The translations under genes were made by a program, and so were the position numbers. Below, in pieces: positions 1 to 20,129 of a stretch of DNA of 20,129 bases. The notes beneath the pieces are model-generated. The model saw nothing but the letters and a program-made list of their open reading frames with translations. It was not told the DNA's origin and searched no databases. Numbering within the stretch: position 1 is the first letter of the stretch; every line of letters starts with the position of its first letter. Source of the DNA: a virus (lineage: Duplodnaviria > Heunggongvirae > Uroviricota > Caudoviricetes); IMG/VR virus record IMGVR_UViG_2534681762_000006. One strand, given 5' to 3'.

Positions 1-88
1 CGTCACCTTCACCAATAAATTCATTAGTTCCGGCCAGCAGATTATAAATTGTTATGGTCCGTGGTTGTTCACTCATTCTGAATGCCAT
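1..88 (-). CDS. tfa: tail fiber assembly protein Tfa, N-terminal 29 codons only (gene runs off the left edge of the window)
   Basis: Minus-strand ATG at 86-88 overlaps the stf stop (TAATG). Hand translation gives [29 protein letters not shown], which matches the N-terminus I remember for lambdoid Tfa proteins. Not in the ORF track because it is truncated by the window edge. Confidence 0.65.
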
Positions 89-3048
89 TATGCAAGCCTC
101 ACAATATAGTTAAATGCGATGTTTTTGACGGTGTTTTCCGCGTTACCAGCAGCGTTAACGGTGATGGTGTGTCCATGTGAACCAATCGCAACGGAGTGCG
201 TGTGTGCACCAATACCGACAGTATGTGCGTGTGCACCTGCAGATGCTGCTGTGCCGGACAGTGAGTGGCTATGGTTACCATCTGTACTGGTATTAGCTAA
301 CGCCCCCGTAGACATACCTACTGAGCCTTGTACACCCCAGGTATTTTGACCTGAGCTTGTATAACCATATTGATAAGTATCTTTAAAAACACTGGGGTTA
401 AATCGACGGCCATCTCTATGGCTGTGATTACCAGCTGCATTCGTGCTGCCACTTAAACTATGGGTATGCGCACCAGTGTTATTCGTGGATTTAGTGCCGT
501 AATCAAACGACGATGTGGTTTTCGTCCCCAAATCAGTACTGGATGCGCTGGCGCTGTGGGTATGCGATTTTATGCCGTCCTGTTCCTGAGACAATACGGC
601 ACGACCACTGGCGGGCTTGCCCTTAATCGTCCAGCCACGCATATCAGGGATCACGCCTGACGGATAAGCAACTGCAAGTTTCGGGTAAGCAGATTTGTCA
701 AAAGTCTGCCCCTGCATCAGGGCATAGCCAGACGGAACGGTATCTGATGGCCACGGGATTGGTGCGCCAGGCGGATAAAACTGCTCTGATGGCGTATAGA
801 GTGAATAAACTGTACCGTCCGTTAACCCTTCCGGCTTATTAGCAGAATATGCTGGTGACGTATGAATCGTCACGCTGGCATTACTGGTATAATCCCATTG
901 AATATTTACACCAGTCGCATAATTTCCGATTGCAACGTAAATATCGTAAGTATCACCAGATGTATTGACCCAGGCAAAATTTGTAAACCCTGTCGATGTG
1001 CGCTGCCATAAAGCACCAGTAATCCCCTTCGGATTACCATTACCTGCACGTAAAACAAGTTCAGATATACCTGCCTGTTGAGGTGACCCCACGTTAAATC
1101 CAGCGCCACCAATCAACGTAATTGAAACAACAGAACTCGCCTGTGGCATGGTTACCGTTGCTAATTTGAACCAACCAGCACCACCGCTGAATGACATTGT
1201 TGTTGAGTTAAGCGTACCAATATCTTTCGGCGTCAGTGTTATATCCGCTGAAAGCGCCTTACCATTCACCTTACGGGCAGAAGGTACCCGACCATTCGCA
1301 TTGTCATTAGCTGCTTTCACTGCTTTCGGTGTCGCAGCAAGCGTTTCAGATGTGCTGTTGGTTGCACTACTGAGCTGGACAATTCCTTTTTGTGCTGTCG
1401 TAGCGTCCTGTGCGGTGTATTTCCCGTTAGCCAGGTCATACGCGGCCTTAACGGCTTTTGGCGTTGCCGCCAGTGACTCGGAAGTGCTGTTAGTCGCACT
1501 GCTGAGCTGAACTATCCCTTTCTGTGCTGTCGTTGCATCCTGTGCGGTGTATTTCCCGTTAGCCAGGTCATACGCGGCCTTAACGGCTTTTGGCGTTGCC
1601 GCCTGTGACTCGGAAGTGCTGTTGGTCGCACTGCTGAGCTGTACTATCCCCTTTTTCGTCGTGCTCGCATCCTCAAGCGCCACGGCGGATGCAATATCCT
1701 CTGCCCGTTTTGCTGCTGTCTCGGCGCGCGTTGCCGCGGATTCCGCCGTACTTTTGCTCTGTGCTGCCGCTGCCGCACTGCCAGCAGCCTCTGTCGCCTT
1801 CGTGGATGCCGTCGTGGCGCTGCCCCTCGCTGCTGACGCCTGTCTGGTCGCCTCATCTTTTGAAGCAGACGCAGATGATGCCGATGACGCCGCCGAACTG
1901 GCGGACGATGCGGCAGCCGTTTTTGAGGATTCTGCGCTGGTTTCCGACGCTTTCGCGTTCGTTTCGGATGTCTTCGCTGCGGAAGCAGACCTCGCTGCTG
2001 CGCTGGCCTGTTCAGTGGCTTCGCCAGCCTTCGTTGTGGCTGTTGAAGCGGATGATGCGGCGCTTTCTGCCGATTTTCCGGCGGCGGTGGCACTGACTGC
2101 TGCCTCCTCTGCCTTAATGGACGCCTCACGGGCCGATGATGCAGCTGCTGTCTCAGAGTCTGCCGCAGCTGAGGCGCTCTGTTCCGCTGCCGTTTCAGAA
2201 GACCTGGCATTCGTCTCGGACGTTTTTGCCGCCTTCACGGAATTTCCTGCCGCCGTTGCCGAGGAGGCTGCACTGCTGGCGCTTGTGGAGGCGTTCGTTT
2301 CTGATGATTTTGCCGCCTCTTTGGAGGCCGCCGCATCTCTGGCTGAAGTGGCGGCTTCTGACGCTTTCGTCGTCGCAGTGGATGCAGAAGTGGCTGCTGA
2401 TTTTTGTGACGCTGCAGCATTCGTTTCTGACGTTTTCGCCGCACCGGCACTGGTGGCCGCCGCGCTTTTTGAGGACTCTGCAGCGGCAGCACTTTTTGAT
2501 GCTTCAGTGGCCTTTGTTGATGCCGTTCCTGCGCTGGAAGACGCCTCCTGAGCCGAAGTCGCGGCCTGTCCGGCTGACGTGCTGGCTGCACGCGCTGAGC
2601 CTGCAGCATCAGTCGCATGGGTTGCCGCCTCACGGGCAGATGTGCCGGCATCACTGGCTGACTTCTTCGCGGCTGCCGTGTTCTGTGCCACCACGGACGC
2701 GTTACGCGCCACCTCTTCCACCATCAGTTCAAAACGGCGCAGAGCCTCCGGACGGGCATCATCCTCCGTCATGGCACCGAGAAAATCATTCAGCGTACCG
2801 GGTCGGGAATCTTCATACACGGTGATGGTCCCGGCATGTGACGGCGGGAATCCTTCCACCAACAGAATAACGCTGTACTGACCGTACTCAACGTCCATGC
2901 TGTAACGCCCGGCTTCATCCGGATTTTCTGAGGCCAGCGTGTTCACCACCACCGAGGTGCTGTTACGTTTTGCTTTCAGCTGGATTGTGCAGTTCTGTAC
3001 CGGTTTTCCTGTGCCGTCTTTCAGTACACCTGAAATCTTTACTGCCAT
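88..3048 (-). CDS. stf: side tail fiber protein Stf (about 986 aa), with a long Ala/Ser/Thr-rich shaft, three tandem 44-aa repeats and a His-rich C-terminal tip
   Basis: ORF 88..3054 (-). N-terminus [26 protein letters not shown] and C-terminus [24 protein letters not shown] match lambda Stf as I recall it. The likely true start is the ATG at 3046-3048; the ORF track begins at an upstream GTG. Confidence 0.9.
1270..1665 (-). repeat. three tandem in-frame 132-bp repeats inside stf, each encoding a 44-aa unit ([43 protein letters not shown])
   Basis: The string tgcggtgtatttcccgttagccaggtcatacgcggccttaacggcttttggcgttgccgcc recurs at about 1411 and 1543, a period of 132 bp. The protein shows three consecutive 44-aa units, the third diverged. 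Confidence 0.85.
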
Positions 3049-3056
3049 ATTCACCC

Positions 3057-3112: not shown

Positions 3113-3712
3113 TCAGAACTTATAACCGACACCCACGATGAAACCGTCAGTGCGCCAGTCGCCACTGCCGGAGCCTTCATAAGCAATATCAATGGCCACG
3201 GATTCGGTCGGGTTAAACTGCACGCCAGCTCCCCACGCCAGAGACGTGTTGCTGTGGCGACCGTCATCACTTCCGGTCAGCACGTCGTGCGTTTTCCCCT
3301 TGTTGTCAGTTACGCGGAGATAATCCCCGGAGAAAGTCGACACACGGCTGTAAGCCACACCCGCCATCGCATACGCGCTGAACCATTCATTCACGCGCAC
3401 AGACGGCCCCGCCATTACGCTGAACCAGCGGTTACGAACGGAATCTTCATGCCAGCGAGTATCGCTGTAATGGGTCAGCTGGCGATTCTTGTCTCCTGCA
3501 TAGCTGAATGACGTCACCAGCCCCAGCGTATCCGTAAACTCATAACGGTATTTCACGTTAATCCCGTTCAGATCATCACTGCCGGGAACGTTGGTCCGGG
3601 CATGAAGATACCCCGCGCTCAGCGTGGACTGATGTTCAGACGCCCATGCAGGCGCACCGGATACGGCCAGACAAATGGCTGCGGACAAAATGGCGGCACA
3701 AACTTTACGCAT
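3113..3712 (-). CDS. lom: Lom/Ail-family outer membrane beta-barrel protein (prophage moron)
   Basis: 199-aa ORF with an N-terminal signal peptide (MRKVCAAILSAAICLAVSGAPAWA) and the C-terminus IAYEGSGSGDWRTDGFIVGVGYKF shared with lambda Lom. It occupies the lambda position between J and stf. GAGAGG Shine-Dalgarno upstream of the ATG. Confidence 0.9.
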   Translation of the reverse strand: MRKVCAAILSAAICLAVSGAPAWASEHQSTLSAGYLHARTNVPGSDDLNGINVKYRYEFTDTLGLVTSFSYAGDKNRQLTHYSDTRWHEDSVRNRWFSVMAGPSVRVNEWFSAYAMAGVAYSRVSTFSGDYLRVTDNKGKTHDVLTGSDDGRHSNTSLAWGAGVQFNPTESVAIDIAYEGSGSGDWRTDGFIVGVGYKF

Positions 3713-3733
3713 AATTACCTCTCGCTTTTCTGC

Positions 3734-3760
3734 AATAAAAAAGGCGTCATTCCTGACGCC
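3734..3760 (-). terminator. putative intrinsic terminator between J and lom
   Basis: Stem ggcgtca (3743-3749) pairs with tgacgcc (3754-3760) around a 4-nt loop; the minus-strand transcript continues with UUUUUUAUU. On the plus strand it is flanked by A- and T-rich runs, so it may act in both directions. Confidence 0.55.
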
Positions 3761-3823
3761 ATTTATTGGGGTTATAAATATTTCAACGAATACTGATGCC
3801 GGAAGCCGCTTTTTTGGTCACAA

Positions 3824-4639
3824 TCACCGTACAGTCGGTGATATTGCCTGCCCCCTGATTGCCTTCTGGAAAATCTTAAACTCCAGAGTGACGCTACCAC
3901 CACCACTAGGCATATCAATAACTGCACTGTAACTACCGGGAATGGCCCCTTTAGTTTCTCTGGATGCGATTAATACGCCGTTTTTGCGAACTTCAAAACC
4001 ATAACCCGTGTATCGCGTGCCTCCCGAGTTATTTCCGCTCCCCGGATCGTCATACGCTATACCGTTAAAAATAATGGGCGGAATAATAATCTGGCGGTCA
4101 AAGTTATGATCATCGCTGATGGTGACTGTAACCGTACCGTCTGGTGTTTCCGTGTTACCCCACGTACCGACTTTTTTCGGGAAGGCTTTTGATACAGCTT
4201 TAACGAAATCCCCTCTGACCTGGGTCGCCTCCAGCATGCCCTTAATCGTACAGTTCTGGTTAATCGTGACATTGTTGAGCGTTCCTGAGTTCGCATTCAC
4301 ACTGCCACTGATATCCGCATTTTTAGCGGTCAGCTTTCCGTCTGATGTCAGGGAAAATACCGGAGGACTGCCACCACTGGTAATGGTGGGGGCCGTCAGG
4401 CGCTTCAGGAACACGTCGTTCATGAATATCTGATTGCCCTGCGCCACAAACATCGGCGTTTCATTCCCGTTTGCCGGGTCAATAAATGCGATACGGTTAG
4501 CGGCAACCAGAAACTGACTCAGTTTGCCTTCCTCCGTGTCCTCCATGCTGAGGCCAATACCCGCGACATAATGTTTGCCGTCTTTGGTCTGCTCAATTTT
4601 GACAGCCCACATGGCATTCCACTTATCGTTGGCGTCCTT
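3824..4639 (-). CDS. J: host specificity protein J, C-terminal receptor-binding segment, lying downstream of an in-frame TGA
   Basis: Same reading frame as ORF 4640..7195. The codons after the TGA read [81 protein letters not shown], which matches the lambda J C-terminal region as I recall it. The last ~150 aa diverge from lambda. Confidence 0.85.
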
Positions 4640-7198
<2,559 letters not shown>

Positions 7199-7255: not shown

Positions 7256-7550
7256 TCAGCGACCAATCACCACAACCTGACCACCGTCCCCTTCGTCTGC
7301 CGTGCTGATCTCCTGAGAAACCACGCGAGACCCCACGCGCATTTCCCCGTACAGAACAGGCAGAACATTGCCCTGGGCAACCATGTTATCCAGTGAGGAG
7401 AAATAGGTGTTCTGCTTACCGTTATCCGTTGTCTGTGTACGGGGAGTTCTGGCTTTCGGTGCCAGCATCTGCGCCACACCACCGAGCACCATACTGGCAC
7501 CGAGAGAAAACAGGATGCCGGTCATACCACCGGTCCCAATGGCTGCCCCC
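7256..7550 (-). CDS. I: tail tip assembly protein I, C-terminal part, in the frame downstream of a 1-nt frameshift
   Basis: ORF 7256..7552 translates to MGAAIGTGGMTGILFSLGASMVLGGVAQMLAPKARTPRTQTTDNGKQNTYFSSLDNMVAQGNVLPVLYGEMRVGSRVVSQEISTADEGDGGQVVVIGR, matching the lambda gpI C-terminus. Confidence 0.85.
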
Positions 7551-9271: not shown

Positions 9272-9600
9272 CAGTTCACCACCTGTTCAAACTCTGCGCT
9301 GAACTCAACACGCAACATACTGACCCGCGACGACCATTTTGCGCAGGTCACCTTTATCTGCCGCCACTCATAAGGCGGCGTCCACAGAAAGGATTTCCAG
9401 CCCCCGTGCTCTTCCAGAAACGACTCCAGTACCGTGGCCTCCTCACGGGGGACAGAAAGCGTCACGCTGTACGTTTTCAGGTTGGCATTCAGCCCGGCAG
9501 GCGCTCGCTGAGAATAGCCATCACCAAAGCGCACCTTTCTTACAGAAGGGACCGAAGCCACATCCATACCGGGTTTCACTTTCCAGCGGAAGGTCTTCAT
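9271..9600 (-). CDS. M: tail tip assembly protein M
   Basis: 109 aa, the same length as lambda gpM. Its start overlaps the H stop by 4 nt (ATGA) and its stop abuts the L start, as in lambda. Confidence 0.9.
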   Translation of the reverse strand: MKTFRWKVKPGMDVASVPSVRKVRFGDGYSQRAPAGLNANLKTYSVTLSVPREEATVLESFLEEHGGWKSFLWTPPYEWRQIKVTCAKWSSRVSMLRVEFSAEFEQVVN

Positions 9601-10301
9601 CGTCCACCTCCGGAGAACAGGCCACCATCACGCATCTGTGTCTGAATTTCATCACGGGCACCCTTGCGGGCCATGTCATACACCGCCTTCAGAGCAGCCG
9701 GACCTATCTGCCCGTTCGTGCCGTCGTTGTTAATCACCACATGGTTATTCTGCTCAAACGTCCCGGACGCCTGCGACCGGCTGTCTGCCATGCTGCCCGG
9801 TGTACCGACATAACCGCCGGTGGCATAGCCGCGCATCAGCCGGTAAAGATTCCCCACGCCAATCCGGCTGGTTGCCTCCTTCGTGAAGACAAATTCACCA
9901 CGGTGAACAATCCCCGCTGGCTCATATTTGCCGCCGGTTCCCGTAAATCCTCCGGTTGCAAAATGGAATTTCGCCGCAGCGGCCTGAATGGCTGTACCGC
10001 CTGACGCGGATGCGCCGCCACCAACAGCCCCGCCAATGGCGCTGCCGATACTCCCGACAATCCCCACCATTGCCTGCTTAAGCAGAATTTCTGTCATCAT
10101 GGACAGCACGGAACGGGTGAAGCTGCGCCAGTTCTGCTCACTGCCGGTCAGCATCGCCGCCATATTCTGTGCAATACCATCAAAGGTCTGCGTGGCTGCA
10201 CTTTTTACCTGCGACATACTGTCCGTGGCGCTCTCTTCCCACTCACTCCAGCCGGACTTCAGGCCTGCCATCCAGCTCCCGCGAAGCTGGTCTTCAGCCG
10301 C
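9597..10301 (-). CDS. H: tail tape measure protein H, C-terminal segment (234 codons) downstream of an in-frame TAG
   Basis: In frame with ORF 10302..12158. It reads AAEDQLRGSWMAGLKSGWSEWEESATDSMSQVKSAATQTFDGIAQNMAAM...RDGGLFSGGGR, matching the lambda gpH C-terminus. Confidence 0.88.
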   Translation of the reverse strand, partial: AAEDQLRGSWMAGLKSGWSEWEESATDSMSQVKSAATQTFDGIAQNMAAMLTGSEQNWRSFTRSVLSMMTEILLKQAMVGIVGSIGSAIGGAVGGGASASGGTAIQAAAAKFHFATGGFTGTGGKYEPAGIVHRGEFVFTKEATSRIGVGNLYRLMRGYATGGYVGTPGSMADSRSQASGTFEQNNHVVINNDGTNGQIGPAALKAVYDMARKGARDEIQTQMRDGGLFSGGGR

Positions 10302-12158
10302 CTAGGTCTTTTTCTGCTCTGACATGACGTTATTCAGCGCCAGCGGATTATCGCCATACTGTTCCTTCAGGCGCTGTTCCGTGGCTTCCCGTTCTGCCTG
10401 CCGGTCAGTCAGCCCCCGGCTTTTCGCATCAATGGCGGCCCGTTTTGCCCGTTGCTGCTGTGCGAATTTATCCGCCTGCTGCGCCAGCGCGTTCAGGCGC
10501 TCCTGATACGTAACCTTGTCGCCAAGTGCAGCCAGCTGGCGTTTGTACTCCAGCGTCTCATCTTTATGCGCCAGCAGGGATTTCTCCTGTGCGGACAGCT
10601 GGCGACGTTGTGCCGCCTCCTCCAGTACCGCGAACTGACTTTCTGCCTTCCACAAATCCCGGCGCTGCTGGCTGATTTTCTCATTCGCTCCGGCATGCTT
10701 CTCCAGCGTCCGGAGTTCTGCCTGAAGCGTCAGCAGGGCAGCATGAGCACTGTCTTCCTGACGATCGCCCGCAGACACCTTCACGCCGGACTGTTTCGGC
10801 TTTTTCAGCGTCGCTTCATAATCCTTTTTCGCCGCCGCCATCAGCGTGTTGTAATCCGCCTGCAGGATTTTCCCGTCTTTCAGTGCCTTGTTCAGTTCTT
10901 CCTGACGGGCGGTATATTTCTCCAGCGGCGTCTGCAGCCGTTCGTAAGCCTTCTGCGCCTCTTCGGTATATTTCAGCCGTGACGCTTCGGTATCGCTCTG
11001 CTGCTGCGCATTTTTGTCCTGTTGAGTCTGCTGCTCAGCCTTCTTTCGGGCGGCTTCAAGCGCAAGACGGGCCTTTTCACGATCATCCCAGTAACGCGCC
11101 CGCGCTTCATCGTTAACAAAATAATCATCCTTGCGCAGATTCCAGATGTCGTCTGCTTTCTTAAACGCAGCCTCTGCCTTAATCAGCATCTCCTGCGCGG
11201 TATCAGGACGACCAATATCCAGCACCGCATCCCACATGGATTTGAATGCCCGTGCTGTCCTGTCTGCCCAGGTTTCCAGCGTGCCCATGTTCTCTTTCAA
11301 GCGTCGGGTCTGGTCATCAAACCCTTTCGTTGCGGCCTCGTTCGCCGCCTGCAATGCCCCGGCTTCATCGCCGGAACGCTGCAACTGAGCAACATACGCA
11401 ATCTGCTCCGCCGTCACGTTATGGAACTGGCGTGCCATCGCCGTCAGCCCCGACGTCGGGTCTGTGGTCAGCTTCCCGAAGGCTTCAGCGACCTTGTCCA
11501 CCTCCACGCCGGATGCAGAGGAGAAACGCGCCACACTCTGGCTGATGGACGCAATCTGAGCCTCACCGCTTACCCCCGCCTTAACCAGTGCGCTGAGTGA
11601 CTCGCTGGTCTGGTTAAACGTCAGCCCTGCCGCCTGCCCGGCTCTGGACAGGACCAGCATACGATCTGCCGTCAGTCCCGCCTGATTGCCGGAAAGGACC
11701 AGCGTTTTGTTGAAATCGGACAGGGTTGAGTTGCCCTGATACCAGGCATACGCCAGCGCTCCGGTCGCCACCGCCAGCGAGGTAGCCCCCACCATCGGCA
11801 GGGTGATCGCACCGGCAAGCCCCCGGAACATGGGGATCATCCCGCCGAAGGAGTCCTTCACCTGACCCCCCTGTTGCAGCAGGATCAGCCACGGACTTTG
11901 CCCGCCTGCAAGCTGCGTGGCCACGTCAGTGAACTGCGCAGGCAGCATACGCATGGCGGCTTTATACTGCCCGACGGAAATTCCCGCTTTCTGTGCAGCC
12001 AGCGCCTGCCGGTTCATCGACTGTTCAACGACTGCCGCTGTTTTTTTCGCATCACTTTCCGTACCGGAAAAATGACGCCTGACTCTGGCCATCTGCTCGT
12101 CAAATCTGGCCGCATCCAGACTCAAATCAACGACCAGATCGCCTACCGGTTCAGCCAT
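10302..12158 (-). CDS. H: tail tape measure protein H, N-terminal 618 codons, ending at an in-frame TAG (10302-10304)
   Basis: Starts MAEPVGDLVVDLSLDAARFDEQMARVRRHFSGTESDAKKTAAVVEQS. The segments total 618 + 1 + 234 = 853 codons, exactly the lambda gpH length. The stop sits where I recall Trp in lambda (...MSEQKKT-W-AAEDQL). Confidence 0.9.
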   Translation of the reverse strand: MAEPVGDLVVDLSLDAARFDEQMARVRRHFSGTESDAKKTAAVVEQSMNRQALAAQKAGISVGQYKAAMRMLPAQFTDVATQLAGGQSPWLILLQQGGQVKDSFGGMIPMFRGLAGAITLPMVGATSLAVATGALAYAWYQGNSTLSDFNKTLVLSGNQAGLTADRMLVLSRAGQAAGLTFNQTSESLSALVKAGVSGEAQIASISQSVARFSSASGVEVDKVAEAFGKLTTDPTSGLTAMARQFHNVTAEQIAYVAQLQRSGDEAGALQAANEAATKGFDDQTRRLKENMGTLETWADRTARAFKSMWDAVLDIGRPDTAQEMLIKAEAAFKKADDIWNLRKDDYFVNDEARARYWDDREKARLALEAARKKAEQQTQQDKNAQQQSDTEASRLKYTEEAQKAYERLQTPLEKYTARQEELNKALKDGKILQADYNTLMAAAKKDYEATLKKPKQSGVKVSAGDRQEDSAHAALLTLQAELRTLEKHAGANEKISQQRRDLWKAESQFAVLEEAAQRRQLSAQEKSLLAHKDETLEYKRQLAALGDKVTYQERLNALAQQADKFAQQQRAKRAAIDAKSRGLTDRQAEREATEQRLKEQYGDNPLALNNVMSEQKKT

Positions 12159-15536: not shown

Positions 15537-15572
15537 TTACGCCAGTTGTACGGACACGAACTCATCAGGATC
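15537..15572 (-). pseudogene. E: 3-prime remnant of major capsid gene E (last 11 codons DPDEFVSVQLA plus stop), separated from the rest of E by the IS66 insertion
   Basis: Hand translation of the minus strand gives GAT CCT GAT GAG TTC GTG TCC GTA CAA CTG GCG TAA. It is contiguous with the E fragment at 18661.. once the IS and one TSD copy are removed. Confidence 0.85.
15565..15572. repeat. target-site duplication TCAGGATC, left copy
   Basis: Identical 8-mer immediately outside both IS ends. Removing the IS and one copy rebuilds an uninterrupted E sequence (gaactcatcaggatcagccaacag on the plus strand). Confidence 0.9.
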
Positions 15573-15657
15573 GTAACCGTCTCATTTAAACCGTCTTTCG
15601 CCTCCCTTTCCTGTTTCCGATACTAATGTCCATTTTCGCAGTAAAGGGACATTTAAG

Positions 15658-16308
15658 ATGAATGCACGAAAAGCGGTACTGGCAGACAATCCGGAATTGA
15701 TCCTGCGTGTGCTACAACTGAGATTTGACGAGTCACTGTCGTACCCGCGCATTTCTGCGCAGACCGGTATCAGCAAAACCGCCATTTTTTCTCTGGTGAG
15801 GCGATTTCACCAGGTATTCACTGACTGGCCTCTTTCCGGAGAATATTCCTGCGTGCAACTGGCCCGGGCTCTGTTCCCGGGGCGATACCCTTCAGCCCCG
15901 ACAGTGACTCAGCCTGTGAAAACAGAGAAAATCCGCCGGAACCGATTTTCACCGGAGTTTAAATGGAGGCTTGTTCAGCAAACTCTTTTACCCGGTGCCT
16001 GTGTCGCACAAATAGCTCGTGAGAACGGAATCAACGATAACCTGCTCTTTAACTGGCGGCATCTCTGGCGTAACGGCGGCCTGCAGCCGACCGGCGAACA
16101 TGAAACATCGCTACTTCCCGTGACGTTAACTCCGGAGCCGGATAATAAAATCCCGGCACCAGTGCAGATACCTGAACAGATAAATACACCGCCCGACAGT
16201 CTGTGCTGTGAGCTGGTTCTGCCGGCCGGAACTCTCAGGCTGAAAGGTGAACTGACACCGGCGTTATTACAGACACTTATCCGCGAAATGAAAGGGAGCA
16301 GCCACTAA
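15658..16308 (+). CDS. tnpA: IS66-family accessory protein TnpA (Orf1), helix-turn-helix
   Basis: 216-aa ORF, first gene of the IS. Its stop overlaps the tnpB start (ATGA). Contains a transposase-like helix-turn-helix region (RRNRFSPEFKWRLVQQTLLPGACVAQIARENGINDNLLFNWR). Confidence 0.75.
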   Translation: MNARKAVLADNPELILRVLQLRFDESLSYPRISAQTGISKTAIFSLVRRFHQVFTDWPLSGEYSCVQLARALFPGRYPSAPTVTQPVKTEKIRRNRFSPEFKWRLVQQTLLPGACVAQIARENGINDNLLFNWRHLWRNGGLQPTGEHETSLLPVTLTPEPDNKIPAPVQIPEQINTPPDSLCCELVLPAGTLRLKGELTPALLQTLIREMKGSSH

Positions 16309-16655
16309 TGATATCTCTCCCTGCCGGTTCGCGTATCTGGCTGGTTGCCGGTATCACCGACATGCGAAATGGTTTTAACGGCCTGGCATCAAAAGTTCAG
16401 AACGTCCTGAAGGATGACCCGTTCTCCGGGCATCTGTTCATCTTCCGCGGACGCCGGGGTGACCAGATAAAAGTGTTGTGGGCTGACAGTGACGGACTGT
16501 GCCTCTTCACCAAACGCCTGGAGCGGGGCCGCTTCGTCTGGCCGGTTACCCGTGACGGCAAGGTGCACCTTACTCCGGCTCAGTTATCTATGCTTCTTGA
16601 AGGTATCAACTGGAAGCACCCGAAACGAACGGAACGCGCTGGCATCCGCATATAA
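16308..16655 (+). CDS. tnpB: IS66-family protein TnpB (Orf2)
   Basis: 115 aa: MISLPAGSRIWLVAGITDMRNGFNGLASKVQNVLKDDPFSGHLFIFRGRRGDQIKVLWADSDGLCLFTKRLERGRFVWP, the typical IS66 Orf2. Confidence 0.88.
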   Translation: MISLPAGSRIWLVAGITDMRNGFNGLASKVQNVLKDDPFSGHLFIFRGRRGDQIKVLWADSDGLCLFTKRLERGRFVWPVTRDGKVHLTPAQLSMLLEGINWKHPKRTERAGIRI

Positions 16656-16674
16656 CCCGTTGTAAAGTGAGGAT

Positions 16675-18228
16675 ATGGACACCTCACTTGCTCATGAGAA
16701 TGCCCGCCTGCGGGCACTGTTGCAGACGCAACAGGACACCATCCGCCAGATGGCGAAATACAACCGCCTGCTCTCACAGCGGGTGGCGGCTTATGCTTCC
16801 GAAATCAACCGGCTGAAGGCGCTGGTTGCGAAACTGCAGCGCATGCAGTTCGGTAAAAGCTCAGAAAAACTTCGCGCTAAAACCGAACGGCAGATACAGG
16901 AAGCCCAGGAGCGAATCAGCGCACTTCAGGAAGAAATGGCGGAAACGCTGGGTGAGCAATATGACCCGGTACTGCCATCCGCCCTGCGCCAGTCTTCAGC
17001 CCGTAAGCCGTTACCGGCCTCACTTCCCCGTGAAACCCGGGTCATCCGGCCGGAAGAGGAATGCTGCCCGGCCTGTGGTGGTGACCTCAGTCCTCTGGGG
17101 TGTGATGTGTCAGAGCAACTGGAGCTTATCAGCAGCGCTTTTAAGGTTATCGAAACACAACGTCCGAAACTGGCCTGTTGCCGGTGCGACCATATCGTGC
17201 AGGCACCAGTACCTTCAAAACCCATTGCACGCAGTTATGCCGGAGCGGGGCTTCTGGCTCATATCGTCACCGGGAAGTATGCAGACCATCTGCCGTTATA
17301 CCGCCAGTCAGAAATATACCTTCGTCAGGGCGTGGAACTGAGCCGCGCCACGCTGGGGCGCTGGACCGGTGCCGTTGCTGAACTGCTGGAGCCGCTGTAT
17401 GACGTGCTGCGCCAGTATGTGCTGATGCCCGGTAAAGTCCATGCGGATGATATCCCCGTTCCGGTCCAGGAGCCGGGCAGTGGTAAAACAAGAACTGCCC
17501 GGCTGTGGGTCTATGTCCGTGATGACCGTAACGCCGGTTCACAGATGCCCCCGGCGGTCTGGTTCGCGTACAGCCCGGACCGGAAAGGTATCCATCCACA
17601 GAATCACCTGGCCGGTTACAGCGGTGTGCTTCAGGCAGATGCTTACGGTGGTTACCGGGCGTTATACGAATCCGGCAGAATAACGGAAGCCGCGTGTATG
17701 GCCCATGCCCGGAGAAAAATCCACGATGTGCATGCAAGAGTGCCAACCGACATCACCACGGAAGCCCTGCAGCGTATCGGTGAACTGTATGTCATCGAGG
17801 CAGAAGTCCGGGGATGTTCAGCAGAACAGCGTCTGGCAGCAAGAAAAGCCAGAGCGGCTCCACTGATGCAGTCACTGTATGACTGGATACAGGAACAGAT
17901 GAAAACACTGTCGCGTCACTCGGATACGGCAAAAGCGTTCGCATACCTGCTGAAACAGTGGGAGGCCCTGAACGTGTACTGCAGTAATGGCTGGGTGGAA
18001 ATCGACAACAACATCGCAGAGAACGCCTTACGGGGAGTGGCCGTAGGCCGGAGAAACTGGCTCTTCGCGGGTTCCGACAGCGGTGGCGAACATGCGGCGG
18101 TGTTGTACTCGCTGATCGGCACATGCCGTCTGAACAATGTAGAGTCCAGAAAAATGGCTTGCGTTACGTTATTGAGCATATCCAGGACTGGCCGGCAAAC
18201 CGGGTACGCGAATCTGTTGCCCTGGTAA
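16675..18228 (+). CDS. tnpC: IS66-family DDE transposase TnpC, C-terminus frameshifted inside the first unit of the tandem duplication
   Basis: 517-aa ORF with an N-terminal coiled-coil and a CxxC...CxxC zinc-ribbon-like motif (CPACGG...CCRCDH). It ends ...[34 protein letters not shown], whereas the duplicated unit and the second IS copy read ...[37 protein letters not shown](T/S)SQ. Confidence 0.88.
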
Positions 18229-18660
18229 AGTTGATCTGACTTCTCAGTAAATATCAATACGGTTCTGGCGAGCCGCTTACAGATGAAAACACTGTCGCGT
18301 CACTCGGATACGGCAAAAGCGTTCGCATACCTGCTGAAACAGTGGGAGGCCCTGAACGTGTACTGCAGTAATGGCTGGGTGGAAATCGACAACAACATCG
18401 CAGAGAACGCCTTACGGGGAGTGGCCGTAGGCCGGAAAAACTGGCTCTTCGCGGGTTCCGACAGCGGTGGCGAACATGCGGCGGTGTTGTACTCGCTGAT
18501 CGGCACATGCCGTCTGAACAATGTAGAGCCAGAAAAATGGCTGCGTTACGTTATTGAGCATATCCAGGACTGGCCGGCAAACCGGGTACGCGATCTGTTG
18601 CCCTGGAAAGTTGATCTGACTTCTCAGTAAATATCAATACGGTTCTGGCGAGCCGCTTAC
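17897..18660 (+). repeat. direct tandem duplication of the IS66 right end: unit 1 at 17897..18280 (384 bp) and unit 2 at 18281..18660 (380 bp), each ending in the right inverted repeat
   Basis: Unit 2 repeats unit 1 from agatgaaaacactgtcgcgtcactcgg through gagccgcttac. Unit 1 differs by four 1-nt insertions (gagtccag vs gagccag; ggcttgcg vs ggctgcg; gcgaatctg vs gcgatctg; ccctggtaaag vs ccctggaaag) and one substitution (ggagaaactgg vs ggaaaaactgg). Confidence 0.9.
18283..18630 (+). CDS. TnpC C-terminal fragment (115 aa) encoded by duplication unit 2; an intact version of the transposase C-terminus
   Basis: [115 protein letters not shown]. Near-identical to the C-terminus of the second IS copy. 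Confidence 0.7.
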   Translation: MKTLSRHSDTAKAFAYLLKQWEALNVYCSNGWVEIDNNIAENALRGVAVGRKNWLFAGSDSGGEHAAVLYSLIGTCRLNNVEPEKWLRYVIEHIQDWPANRVRDLLPWKVDLTSQ

Positions 18661-18668
18661 TCAGGATC
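18661..18668. repeat. target-site duplication TCAGGATC, right copy
   Basis: See the left copy. 8 bp is the characteristic target-site duplication length for IS66-family elements. Confidence 0.9.
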
Positions 18669-19398
18669 AGCCAACAGCATCAGCGGTGCTGACTGAATCA
18701 TGGTGAACTCACGCGCCGGATCGCCGGTGGTCACCCAGTTTTTCGGGTAGCGGGCAGAGGCGTTAATACCTTCGCGCTGTGCGTCCGCATCCTGAATGCA
18801 GCCATAGGTGCGCAGACCGCGTGCCTGAGTGTTCCCCAGCACCATCGTGTTGTCCGGCAGGAAGTTCTTTTTGACGTCGTTTTCCACGTACTGTCCGGAA
18901 TACACGACGATCGCCGTATCGCCATACATCCCCTTATAGGACACCGCTTCGCCCAGGTCTTTTACCGCTGTCTCCAGCTCGGAATTAGAGCCGCGACGGG
19001 TATCCAGCTTCTCCTTGACGGCTTTGAAGGAACGGAACAGCGCCCAGCCTTTCGGATCAAACACGATGATATTCACCACGCCGCTGGCGTTCAGCGCGTA
19101 GGCTTCGATATCGTCGGTCGGGTCATACGTGGACTTGTCACGCTTGCTCCACTCCGTGCCGCCGGACTGCGTGATGTTGTTCGCCGCACTGCGGCCCATA
19201 TCCACCTCAACCGGATCGAAGGCTTCACCGGTCATGGTGTATTTGCCCTTGAGCACGGCAGAAACTGCCTGCATCTCTTCGACCTGAGCAATGGCCAGCT
19301 CTTCGTCACGCATGTTCTGCAGGATGATGCGACGGCGGCGGTAAGCCGGGTCCGCCAGATTCTGCGGATCTTCATCCGGCAGGCGACGCAGGGTCATC
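18661..19398 (-). pseudogene. E: major capsid protein E, internal fragment (about codons 91-333 of 341), bounded on both sides by IS66 ends
   Basis: ORF 18657..19397 translates to MTLRRLPDEDPQNLADPAYRRRRIILQNMRDEELAIAQVEEMQAVSAVLKGKYTMTGEAFDPVEVDMGRS...MIQSAPLMLLADP, matching lambda gpE from an internal Met. The terminal Glu and TAA stop are created at the IS junction. Confidence 0.88.
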
Positions 19399-20129
19399 GT
19401 AAGCGACTCGTCAGAACCGTATTGATATTTACTGAGAGCTCAGATCAACTTTCCAGGGCAACAGATCGCGTACCCGGTTTGCCGGCCAGTCCTGGATATG
19501 TTCAATGACGTAACGCAGCCACTTTTCTGGCTCCACATTGTTCAGACGGCATGTGCCGATCAGCGAGTACAACACCGCCGCATGTTCACCACCGCTGTCG
19601 GAACCCGCGAACATCCAGTTTTTCCGGCCTACGGCCACTCCCCGTAAGGCGTTCTCTGCGATGTTGTTGTCGATTTCCACCCAGCCATTACTGCAGTACA
19701 CGTTCAGTGCATCCCACTGTTTCAGCAGGTATGCGAACGCTTTTGCCGTATCTGAGTGACGCGACAGTGTTTTCATCTGTTGCTGTATCCAGTCATACAG
19801 TGACTGCATCAGTGGCGCGGCTCTGGCTTTTCTTGCCGCCAGACGCTGTTCTGCTGAACAGCACCGGACCTCTGCCTCGATGGCATACAGTTCACCGATA
19901 CGCTGCAGGGCTTCCGTGGTGATGTAGGTGGGCGCTCTTGCATGCACATCGTGGATTTTTCTCCGGGCATGAGCCATACACGCGGCTTCCGTTATTCTGC
20001 CGGATTCGTATAACGCCCGGTAACCACCGTAAGCATCGGCCTGAAGCACACCGCTGTAACCGGCCAGGTGATTTTGTGGATGGATACCTTTCCGGTCCGG
20101 ACTGTACGCGAACCAGACCGCCGGGGGCA
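19399..20129 (-). mobile_element. second IS66-family copy in inverted orientation, partial (runs off the right edge); its right inverted repeat abuts E at 19399
   Basis: Plus strand at 19399 reads gtaagcgactcgtcagaaccgtattgatatttactgag, the reverse complement of the first copy's right end with 2 mismatches in 38. Internal sequence encodes the TnpC C-terminal half on the minus strand. Confidence 0.85.
19429..20129 (-). CDS. tnpC: IS66-family transposase TnpC, C-terminal portion (5-prime part lies beyond the window)
   Basis: ORF 19429..20049 ((M)[60 protein letters not shown]...KVDLSSQ); the frame stays open upstream to the window edge (...[27 protein letters not shown]). It shows several amino-acid differences from copy 1 (for example VPTDITT vs APTYITT, WEAL vs WDAL, NWLF vs NWMF). 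Confidence 0.85.

Follow-up and report, generated by a model that had tools for sequence, protein, structure and literature searches.

When a tail fibre is lambda-like over most of its length and unlike lambda at its end, which receptor did that end recognize, and can the gene still serve it? This question is raised by a window of 20,129 nt, the whole stretch of DNA analyzed here, which makes up the complete contig AQEJ01000040.1 of a 2013 draft assembly (GCA_000355115.2) of Escherichia coli ThroopD, an enterotoxigenic isolate (Dallas, 1975/76; PMC4309559). The window holds the late region of a lambdoid prophage, encoded on the minus strand. Based on divergence from lambda, identity to phage 434 and Pfam matches, we delimit a receptor-binding domain module of the phage 434 type at 3783..4258 (minus strand; J residues ~980-1137). 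In our reading, to which we give a probability of about 0.88, this segment is the 434-allele (OmpC) receptor domain of a lambda-family J, and the copy present here is a fossil.

Gene J, which encodes the central tail fibre or host specificity protein, was traced by translation, frame repair, Pfam and synteny to 3783..7195 on the minus strand, where it is a pseudogene. Its ancestral coding sequence counts 3413 nt in the window, compared to 3414 nt in phage 434 and the E. coli relatives. When the single deleted nucleotide is restored, a protein of 1137 amino acids is obtained that is 98.8% identical to 434 J. The 851-residue part of J matches FNIII-A_GpJ, Phage-tail_3, Ig_J and Ig_J_second above the Pfam cut-offs, and the repaired C-terminal part matches Phage_Tail_Tip and Ig_GpJ_C. 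Gene calls and Pfam place J between I and lom in a tail cluster with the order ...H-M-L-K-I-J-lom-stf, and the gene order around J agrees with the prophage of E. coli 2013C-3181 and with phage 434. An uninterrupted J frame of ~1130-1140 codons is absent from the window, since codon 852 reads TGA and one nucleotide is deleted near codon 1110. By architecture and synteny, J belongs to the lambda J/TipJ family, but as a pseudogene and not as a working member.

The repaired protein was compared with lambda (NC_001416), phage 434 (OL657226) and the best E. coli match, strain Z1323HEC0067. In a global alignment, residues 1-980 are 97.8% identical to lambda J (958/980), whereas residues 981-1137 agree with it in only 61 of 163 alignment columns (37%), with several indels. 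At the DNA level, blastn similarity to lambda (95.9%) extends from the J start down to window position 4226 (~codon 990), and no alignment to lambda DNA was obtained across 3783-4225. The divergence of the J end from lambda is far beyond chance. A preliminary description of this DNA, made from the letters alone, had proposed precisely such a split between a lambda-like body and a divergent C-terminus. The alignment bears this out: instead of the high identity to lambda J residues ~980-1132 by which a lambda-type, LamB-binding domain would be recognized, only the above 37% of amino acids is retained over 981-1137. The region it had marked, 3824-4300, comes close to the true divergent segment, but the strand has to be corrected, since the gene lies on the minus strand; translation of the window from 7195 to 3824 reproduces the peptide that had been quoted.

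The origin of the divergent end becomes apparent from a comparison with other phages. The DNA at 3824-4300 matches 74 phage records, with 98.7% identity to phage 434, 98.5% to 434B and to lambda h434 imm21, 99.0% to several Stx-converting phages and, as the best phage match, 99.2% to mEp460_ev081. Between residues 851 and 1050 the repaired J agrees with 434 J at every position (100%), and the receptor domain differs from that of 434 at four of its 157 residues (S1057P, I1108V, Q1110H and G1115R, the window residue being given first), one of them private to the window. Across J nt 1801-2970, the G-to-A change that creates the TGA is the sole difference from 434 J. A tblastn search with the 159-residue domain against 50,697 phage records separates the matches into discrete groups: 74 records show at least 90% identity and 169 less than 60%, with zero in between. 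In this search lambda h434 imm21 scores 96.9% amino acid identity, the OmpC phage phi330 42.2% and lambda 37.4%. The collinearity of the window with 434 moreover extends past J and lom into stf, at 96.7% in blastn. On these identities, the divergent J end is the receptor-binding module of phage 434 (h434), which forms a discrete class.

A J end of the 434 type is not new, nor is anything else here new in kind. Genetically, the 434 host-range allele has been on record since the 1960s, it has been sequenced and it is now used in engineered lambda particles; as a discovery, the finding of an already known module carries little weight. The J protein of phage 434 (OL657226, UMO75286.1) has the same length as the repaired window protein, 1137 residues, and 434 has the same order downstream of J, namely terminator, lom and stf. 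Differences from 434 J comprise the replacement of W852 by TGA, the 1-nt deletion near codon 1110 and the private P1057S. The stf genes are also different alleles, the window encoding a longer product (986-988 amino acids) compared to the 437-residue side fibre of 434 (1314-nt gene).

How the gene was broken follows from a three-way DNA alignment of its last ~960 nt, in which the window and its E. coli relative Z1323HEC0067 differ at exactly three places. The first is codon 852 (4640..4642, minus strand), where a TGA stands in place of the TGG found in lambda, 434 and the closest E. coli sequences. The second is a private missense change, CCG to TCG (P1057S; 4025..4027, minus strand), located where the 434-type domain exceeds that of lambda by six residues. 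The third is the loss of one A from AAA on the coding strand, seen in the window as TT at 3864..3865 instead of the TTT of the relatives. This deletion is likewise present in the gap list of a blastn comparison with E. coli 2013C-3181. For the domain DNA itself, the best E. coli matches are 99.6% identical, which corresponds exactly to P1057S and the deletion.

As the TGA replaces a conserved TGG, normal translation from the J start ends at residue 851, and the view of the preliminary description that the divergent end is unexpressed as written, because it lies downstream of this TGA, is upheld. A second inactivating lesion, the frameshift inside the receptor domain, was missing from that account. 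Beyond J residue ~1110 the deletion puts translation out of frame, and the protein as written ends at an out-of-frame stop at 3824..3826 (minus strand; ORF 3824-4612); in the ancestral frame, translation would continue for another 41 nt, up to a stop at 3783-3785. The quoted tail of J is therefore correct as a translation, but the reduction from TTT to TT makes its last 13 residues a frameshift product. Taken as written, the C-terminal peptide is an artefact of the frameshift that would mislead searches or modelling. Residues 841-861 of lambda J belong to the helical shaft (PMC11101478); mapped onto this architecture, the TGA at 852 removes part of the shaft, the whole beta-prism fibre and the receptor domain; even without it, the frameshift would cost the receptor domain its last ~27 residues. 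An exact-sequence look-up found the 851- and 262-residue products as written each on a single contig, AQEJ01000040.1, hence the J lesions are private. Selenocysteine insertion or programmed readthrough at the TGA was considered and rejected, given the TGG in lambda, 434 and the closest E. coli, the private nature of the TGA and the second lesion downstream of it.

The J lesions do not stand alone in this prophage. Past J, the genes follow in the order I, K, L, M, H, T/G, V, U, Z, FII and FI. The tape-measure gene H (9597-12158, minus strand) carries, by comparison with a relative, an in-frame TAG for TGG at 10302-10304 (W619*), which splits it into ORFs of 618 and 224 amino acids. A frameshift in the tail assembly gene I (~7545-7546, minus strand; five C's versus six in E. 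coli 2013C-3181) leaves two short ORFs. Further along, a plus-strand IS66-family (ISCro1-like) element with tnpA, tnpB and tnpC occupies 15658-18228, followed by a partial repeat of its IS end at 18279-18660. Of the major capsid gene E, 738 nt (18661-19398) survive as a fragment between the IS66-family copies; the inverted IS end beyond it runs off the contig end (20129), and the contig lacks the head genes that lie past E. The arrangement at 15570-20129 could reflect either an IS-mediated rearrangement or an assembly artefact caused by repeat collapse. Within the sequence, the real lesions number four: the nonsense codons J W852* and H W619* and one frameshift each in J and I. Per-site codon comparison with 2013C-3181 had listed additional nonsense changes, which were discarded: at J Y328 the codon reads Trp by way of two changes, and M (Y79, W53) and G (Y105) are uninterrupted ORFs in the window. 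Both H W619* and J W852* arose by a G-to-A change in a Trp codon.

It could be argued that the TGA and the frameshift are sequencing or assembly errors and that the real ThroopD possesses an intact J with a working 434-type fibre. The nature of the source lends this some support, as the window is an entire 20-kb contig of a 2013 draft assembly, the J (3864-3865) and I (~7545) frameshifts are both single-base homopolymer losses, and all J lesions are private to that contig. Yet, the J TGA and the H TAG are substitutions of TGG, which is untypical of consensus error, and the reduction of E to a fragment between IS copies with the loss of the head genes stands whatever point errors may be present. 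Four lesions in ~7 kb fit a decaying prophage, even though, in a draft assembly, two of the four are homopolymer indels, a classic type of error. We therefore regard the error explanation as unlikely. Two substitutions of TGG by a stop, together with the IS damage, make a decaying prophage of the enterotoxigenic strain ThroopD, with lesions taken as real mutations, the better reading.

The genes lom (3113-3712) and stf (88-3054), both called on the minus strand, are lysogen-expressed and accessory genes that have stayed intact, in contrast to the broken H, I, J and E. The lom gene is nucleotide-identical to that of E. coli 2013C-3181, and stf is without indels, with an Ala/Ser-rich repetitive middle containing three direct repeats of ~45 amino acids.

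If the copy in the window is a fossil, its receptor has to be read from its relatives. Pfam PF12421 (Ig_GpJ_C) matches the domain over its full length with 92.7 bits against a cut-off of 26.2, and in phmmer searches the domain alone retrieves the solved gpJ chains 9wca (E 2e-30), 8xcj (E 1e-22) and 8iyk (E 1e-21). It is thus predicted to share the fold family of the lambda gpJ C-terminal domain, which is Ig-like as in PDB 8xck. Lambda gpJ (P03749; PDB 8iyk, 8xcj, 8xck), whose receptor is LamB, has the same architecture as the window protein and a homologous Ig-like C-terminal domain, but the window domain differs from it by its low identity (37%), a 6-residue insertion, other indels and the lack of DNA similarity. 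The lambda J trimer terminates in three Ig-like domains, which reach into the LamB trimer with their four bottom loops; on binding, the Ig-like domains move apart, and the resulting twist travels up the beta-prism fibre and the helical shaft, upon which the tail opens (PMC11101478). By analogy, the Ig-like loops of the J trimer in an intact phage with the window-type fibre would dock on a trimeric outer-membrane porin and trigger tail opening, and the 434 allele would redirect this docking to OmpC.

That such ends act as portable cassettes is well-illustrated by engineered and natural relatives. Lambda particles are redirected to OmpC by exchanging the C-terminal module of their J at lambda residue 964 (PMC11338833). 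One such construct, the A8 gpJ chimera (PDB 9wca/9wcb; Brödel et al., 2024, PMC11338833), bears an OmpC-targeting natural J end on lambda at this residue and provides the best-scoring solved structure for the window domain, at the E-value of 2e-30 given for 9wca. The graft shows that this end of J can be transferred as a receptor cassette; the junction in the window (~residues 975-990) is the same, yet the A8 domain is only 42% identical to the window domain and represents a different allele class. Phage phi330 (PV189401) resembles the window phage in being a long-tailed lambdoid of pathogenic E. coli that has a porin as receptor and a homologous receptor domain of the J type, while its domain is 42% identical to that of the window. 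Its OmpC dependence has been proven by knockout and complementation, and the phi330, 434 and lambda domains share 35-40% pairwise identity (PMC12502783). Since at least two other domain classes, A8 and phi330, each at 42%, also use OmpC, sequence class and receptor are not related one-to-one.

For the 434 module itself, lambda equipped with the J of 434 binds OmpC, which is the receptor of 434 (PMC11101478, PMC3509688); the original work on OmpC as the 434 receptor is Hantke (1978), as cited in PMC7553319. The preliminary suggestion that this tail served an outer-membrane receptor other than LamB is in line with these data, the module being of the 434 type with OmpC as its receptor in the literature. 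Given the near-identity to 434 together with the literature on 434 and lambda h434, the intact ancestor of the window J probably directed adsorption to OmpC.

An ancestral domain that bound another receptor would require either that the OmpC use of 434 resides in its side fibre or that S1057, I1108, Q1110 and G1115 shifted the specificity. The first possibility deserves attention because of the composition of the sequenced hybrid lambda h434 imm21 (OM418627). Here, the switch from lambda to 434 takes place inside J at nt 2115-2132, near codon 706-711, and the hybrid keeps the lom, stf and tfa of 434 along with type III effector genes. The historical h434 host-range allele is consequently a far larger segment than the receptor domain, spanning stf and tfa besides the J end, and this hybrid alone cannot separate the J domain from the side fibre. 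In addition, the side fibres of Ur-lambda bind OmpC (PMC12617516), and in phage 21 one mutation in J can be enough to add a receptor (PMC11336670). On the other hand, reviews and the structural paper credit the J of 434 with OmpC use (PMC3509688, PMC11101478), and the protein essential for adsorption is J, the side fibres only making the process faster (PMC12617516). The closest intact E. coli J moreover shares three of the four differences from 434, and tblastn finds domains 95-99% identical to that of the window in 28 phage records. A non-OmpC receptor is therefore very unlikely, and we retain OmpC as the probable receptor of the ancestral J. It is scarcely credible that the 262-residue ORF (3824-4612; GenBank EMW91542.1) is translated by re-initiation from its ATG at 4612, nine codons (27 nt) past the TGA, into a free C-terminal fibre fragment with a function of its own, as a clear Shine-Dalgarno was not found upstream of this ATG, the fragment is without the hub domains needed to join the tail, its receptor domain is itself frameshifted and the exact product is on record from no other contig.

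The prevalence of both alleles in E. coli puts the divergence from lambda in a different light. With presence defined as at least 80% coverage, 2091 of 5426 complete E. coli genomes contain the 434-type domain DNA (3783-4255), in up to seven copies per genome. Lambda's own J end (lambda 3476-3904) was found in 98 of the 5426, always at 99% identity or more, and among the matches listed (n=5) all are laboratory or expression strains, namely K-12 and B derivatives and DE3 lysogens. These counts imply that what reads as a divergence from lambda is rather lambda itself carrying a rare allele. The 434/OmpC-type module is about twenty times commoner than the LamB type in complete E. coli genomes, and the receptor tropism of lambdoid prophages can be deduced from the final ~160 codons of J.

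The J end module is swapped among lambdoid phages via homologous recombination in the conserved J sequence just upstream; such exchange accounts for a protein that is lambda-like before residue ~980 and unlike lambda after it. The recombination context in the window consists of a long lambda-identical J sequence upstream of the cassette and lom downstream. More speculatively, the dead cassette may donate OmpC tropism to a superinfecting LamB-type phage, and P1057S may record an adaptation to an OmpC variant before the gene died, a combined scenario that we consider improbable.

The conserved part of J has a history of its own. In codons 1-600 (window 5395-7195), lambda-like and 434-like states alternate at the sites where lambda and 434 differ, whereas from nt 1801 onward J is purely 434-like; compared to 434 J, the N-terminal 600 codons are thus a mosaic of both kinds of sites. 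Recombination has mixed the two kinds of sequence on a fine scale over these first ~1800 nt, inside the conserved portion of J. At the opposite end of J, a pattern scan located a terminator-like hairpin on the minus strand at 3743..3760 (GGCGTCA-GGAA-TGACGCC, followed by TTTTTT), 23 nt past the ancestral J stop and ahead of lom, and phage 434 has an annotated terminator at the equivalent place in its J-lom gap.
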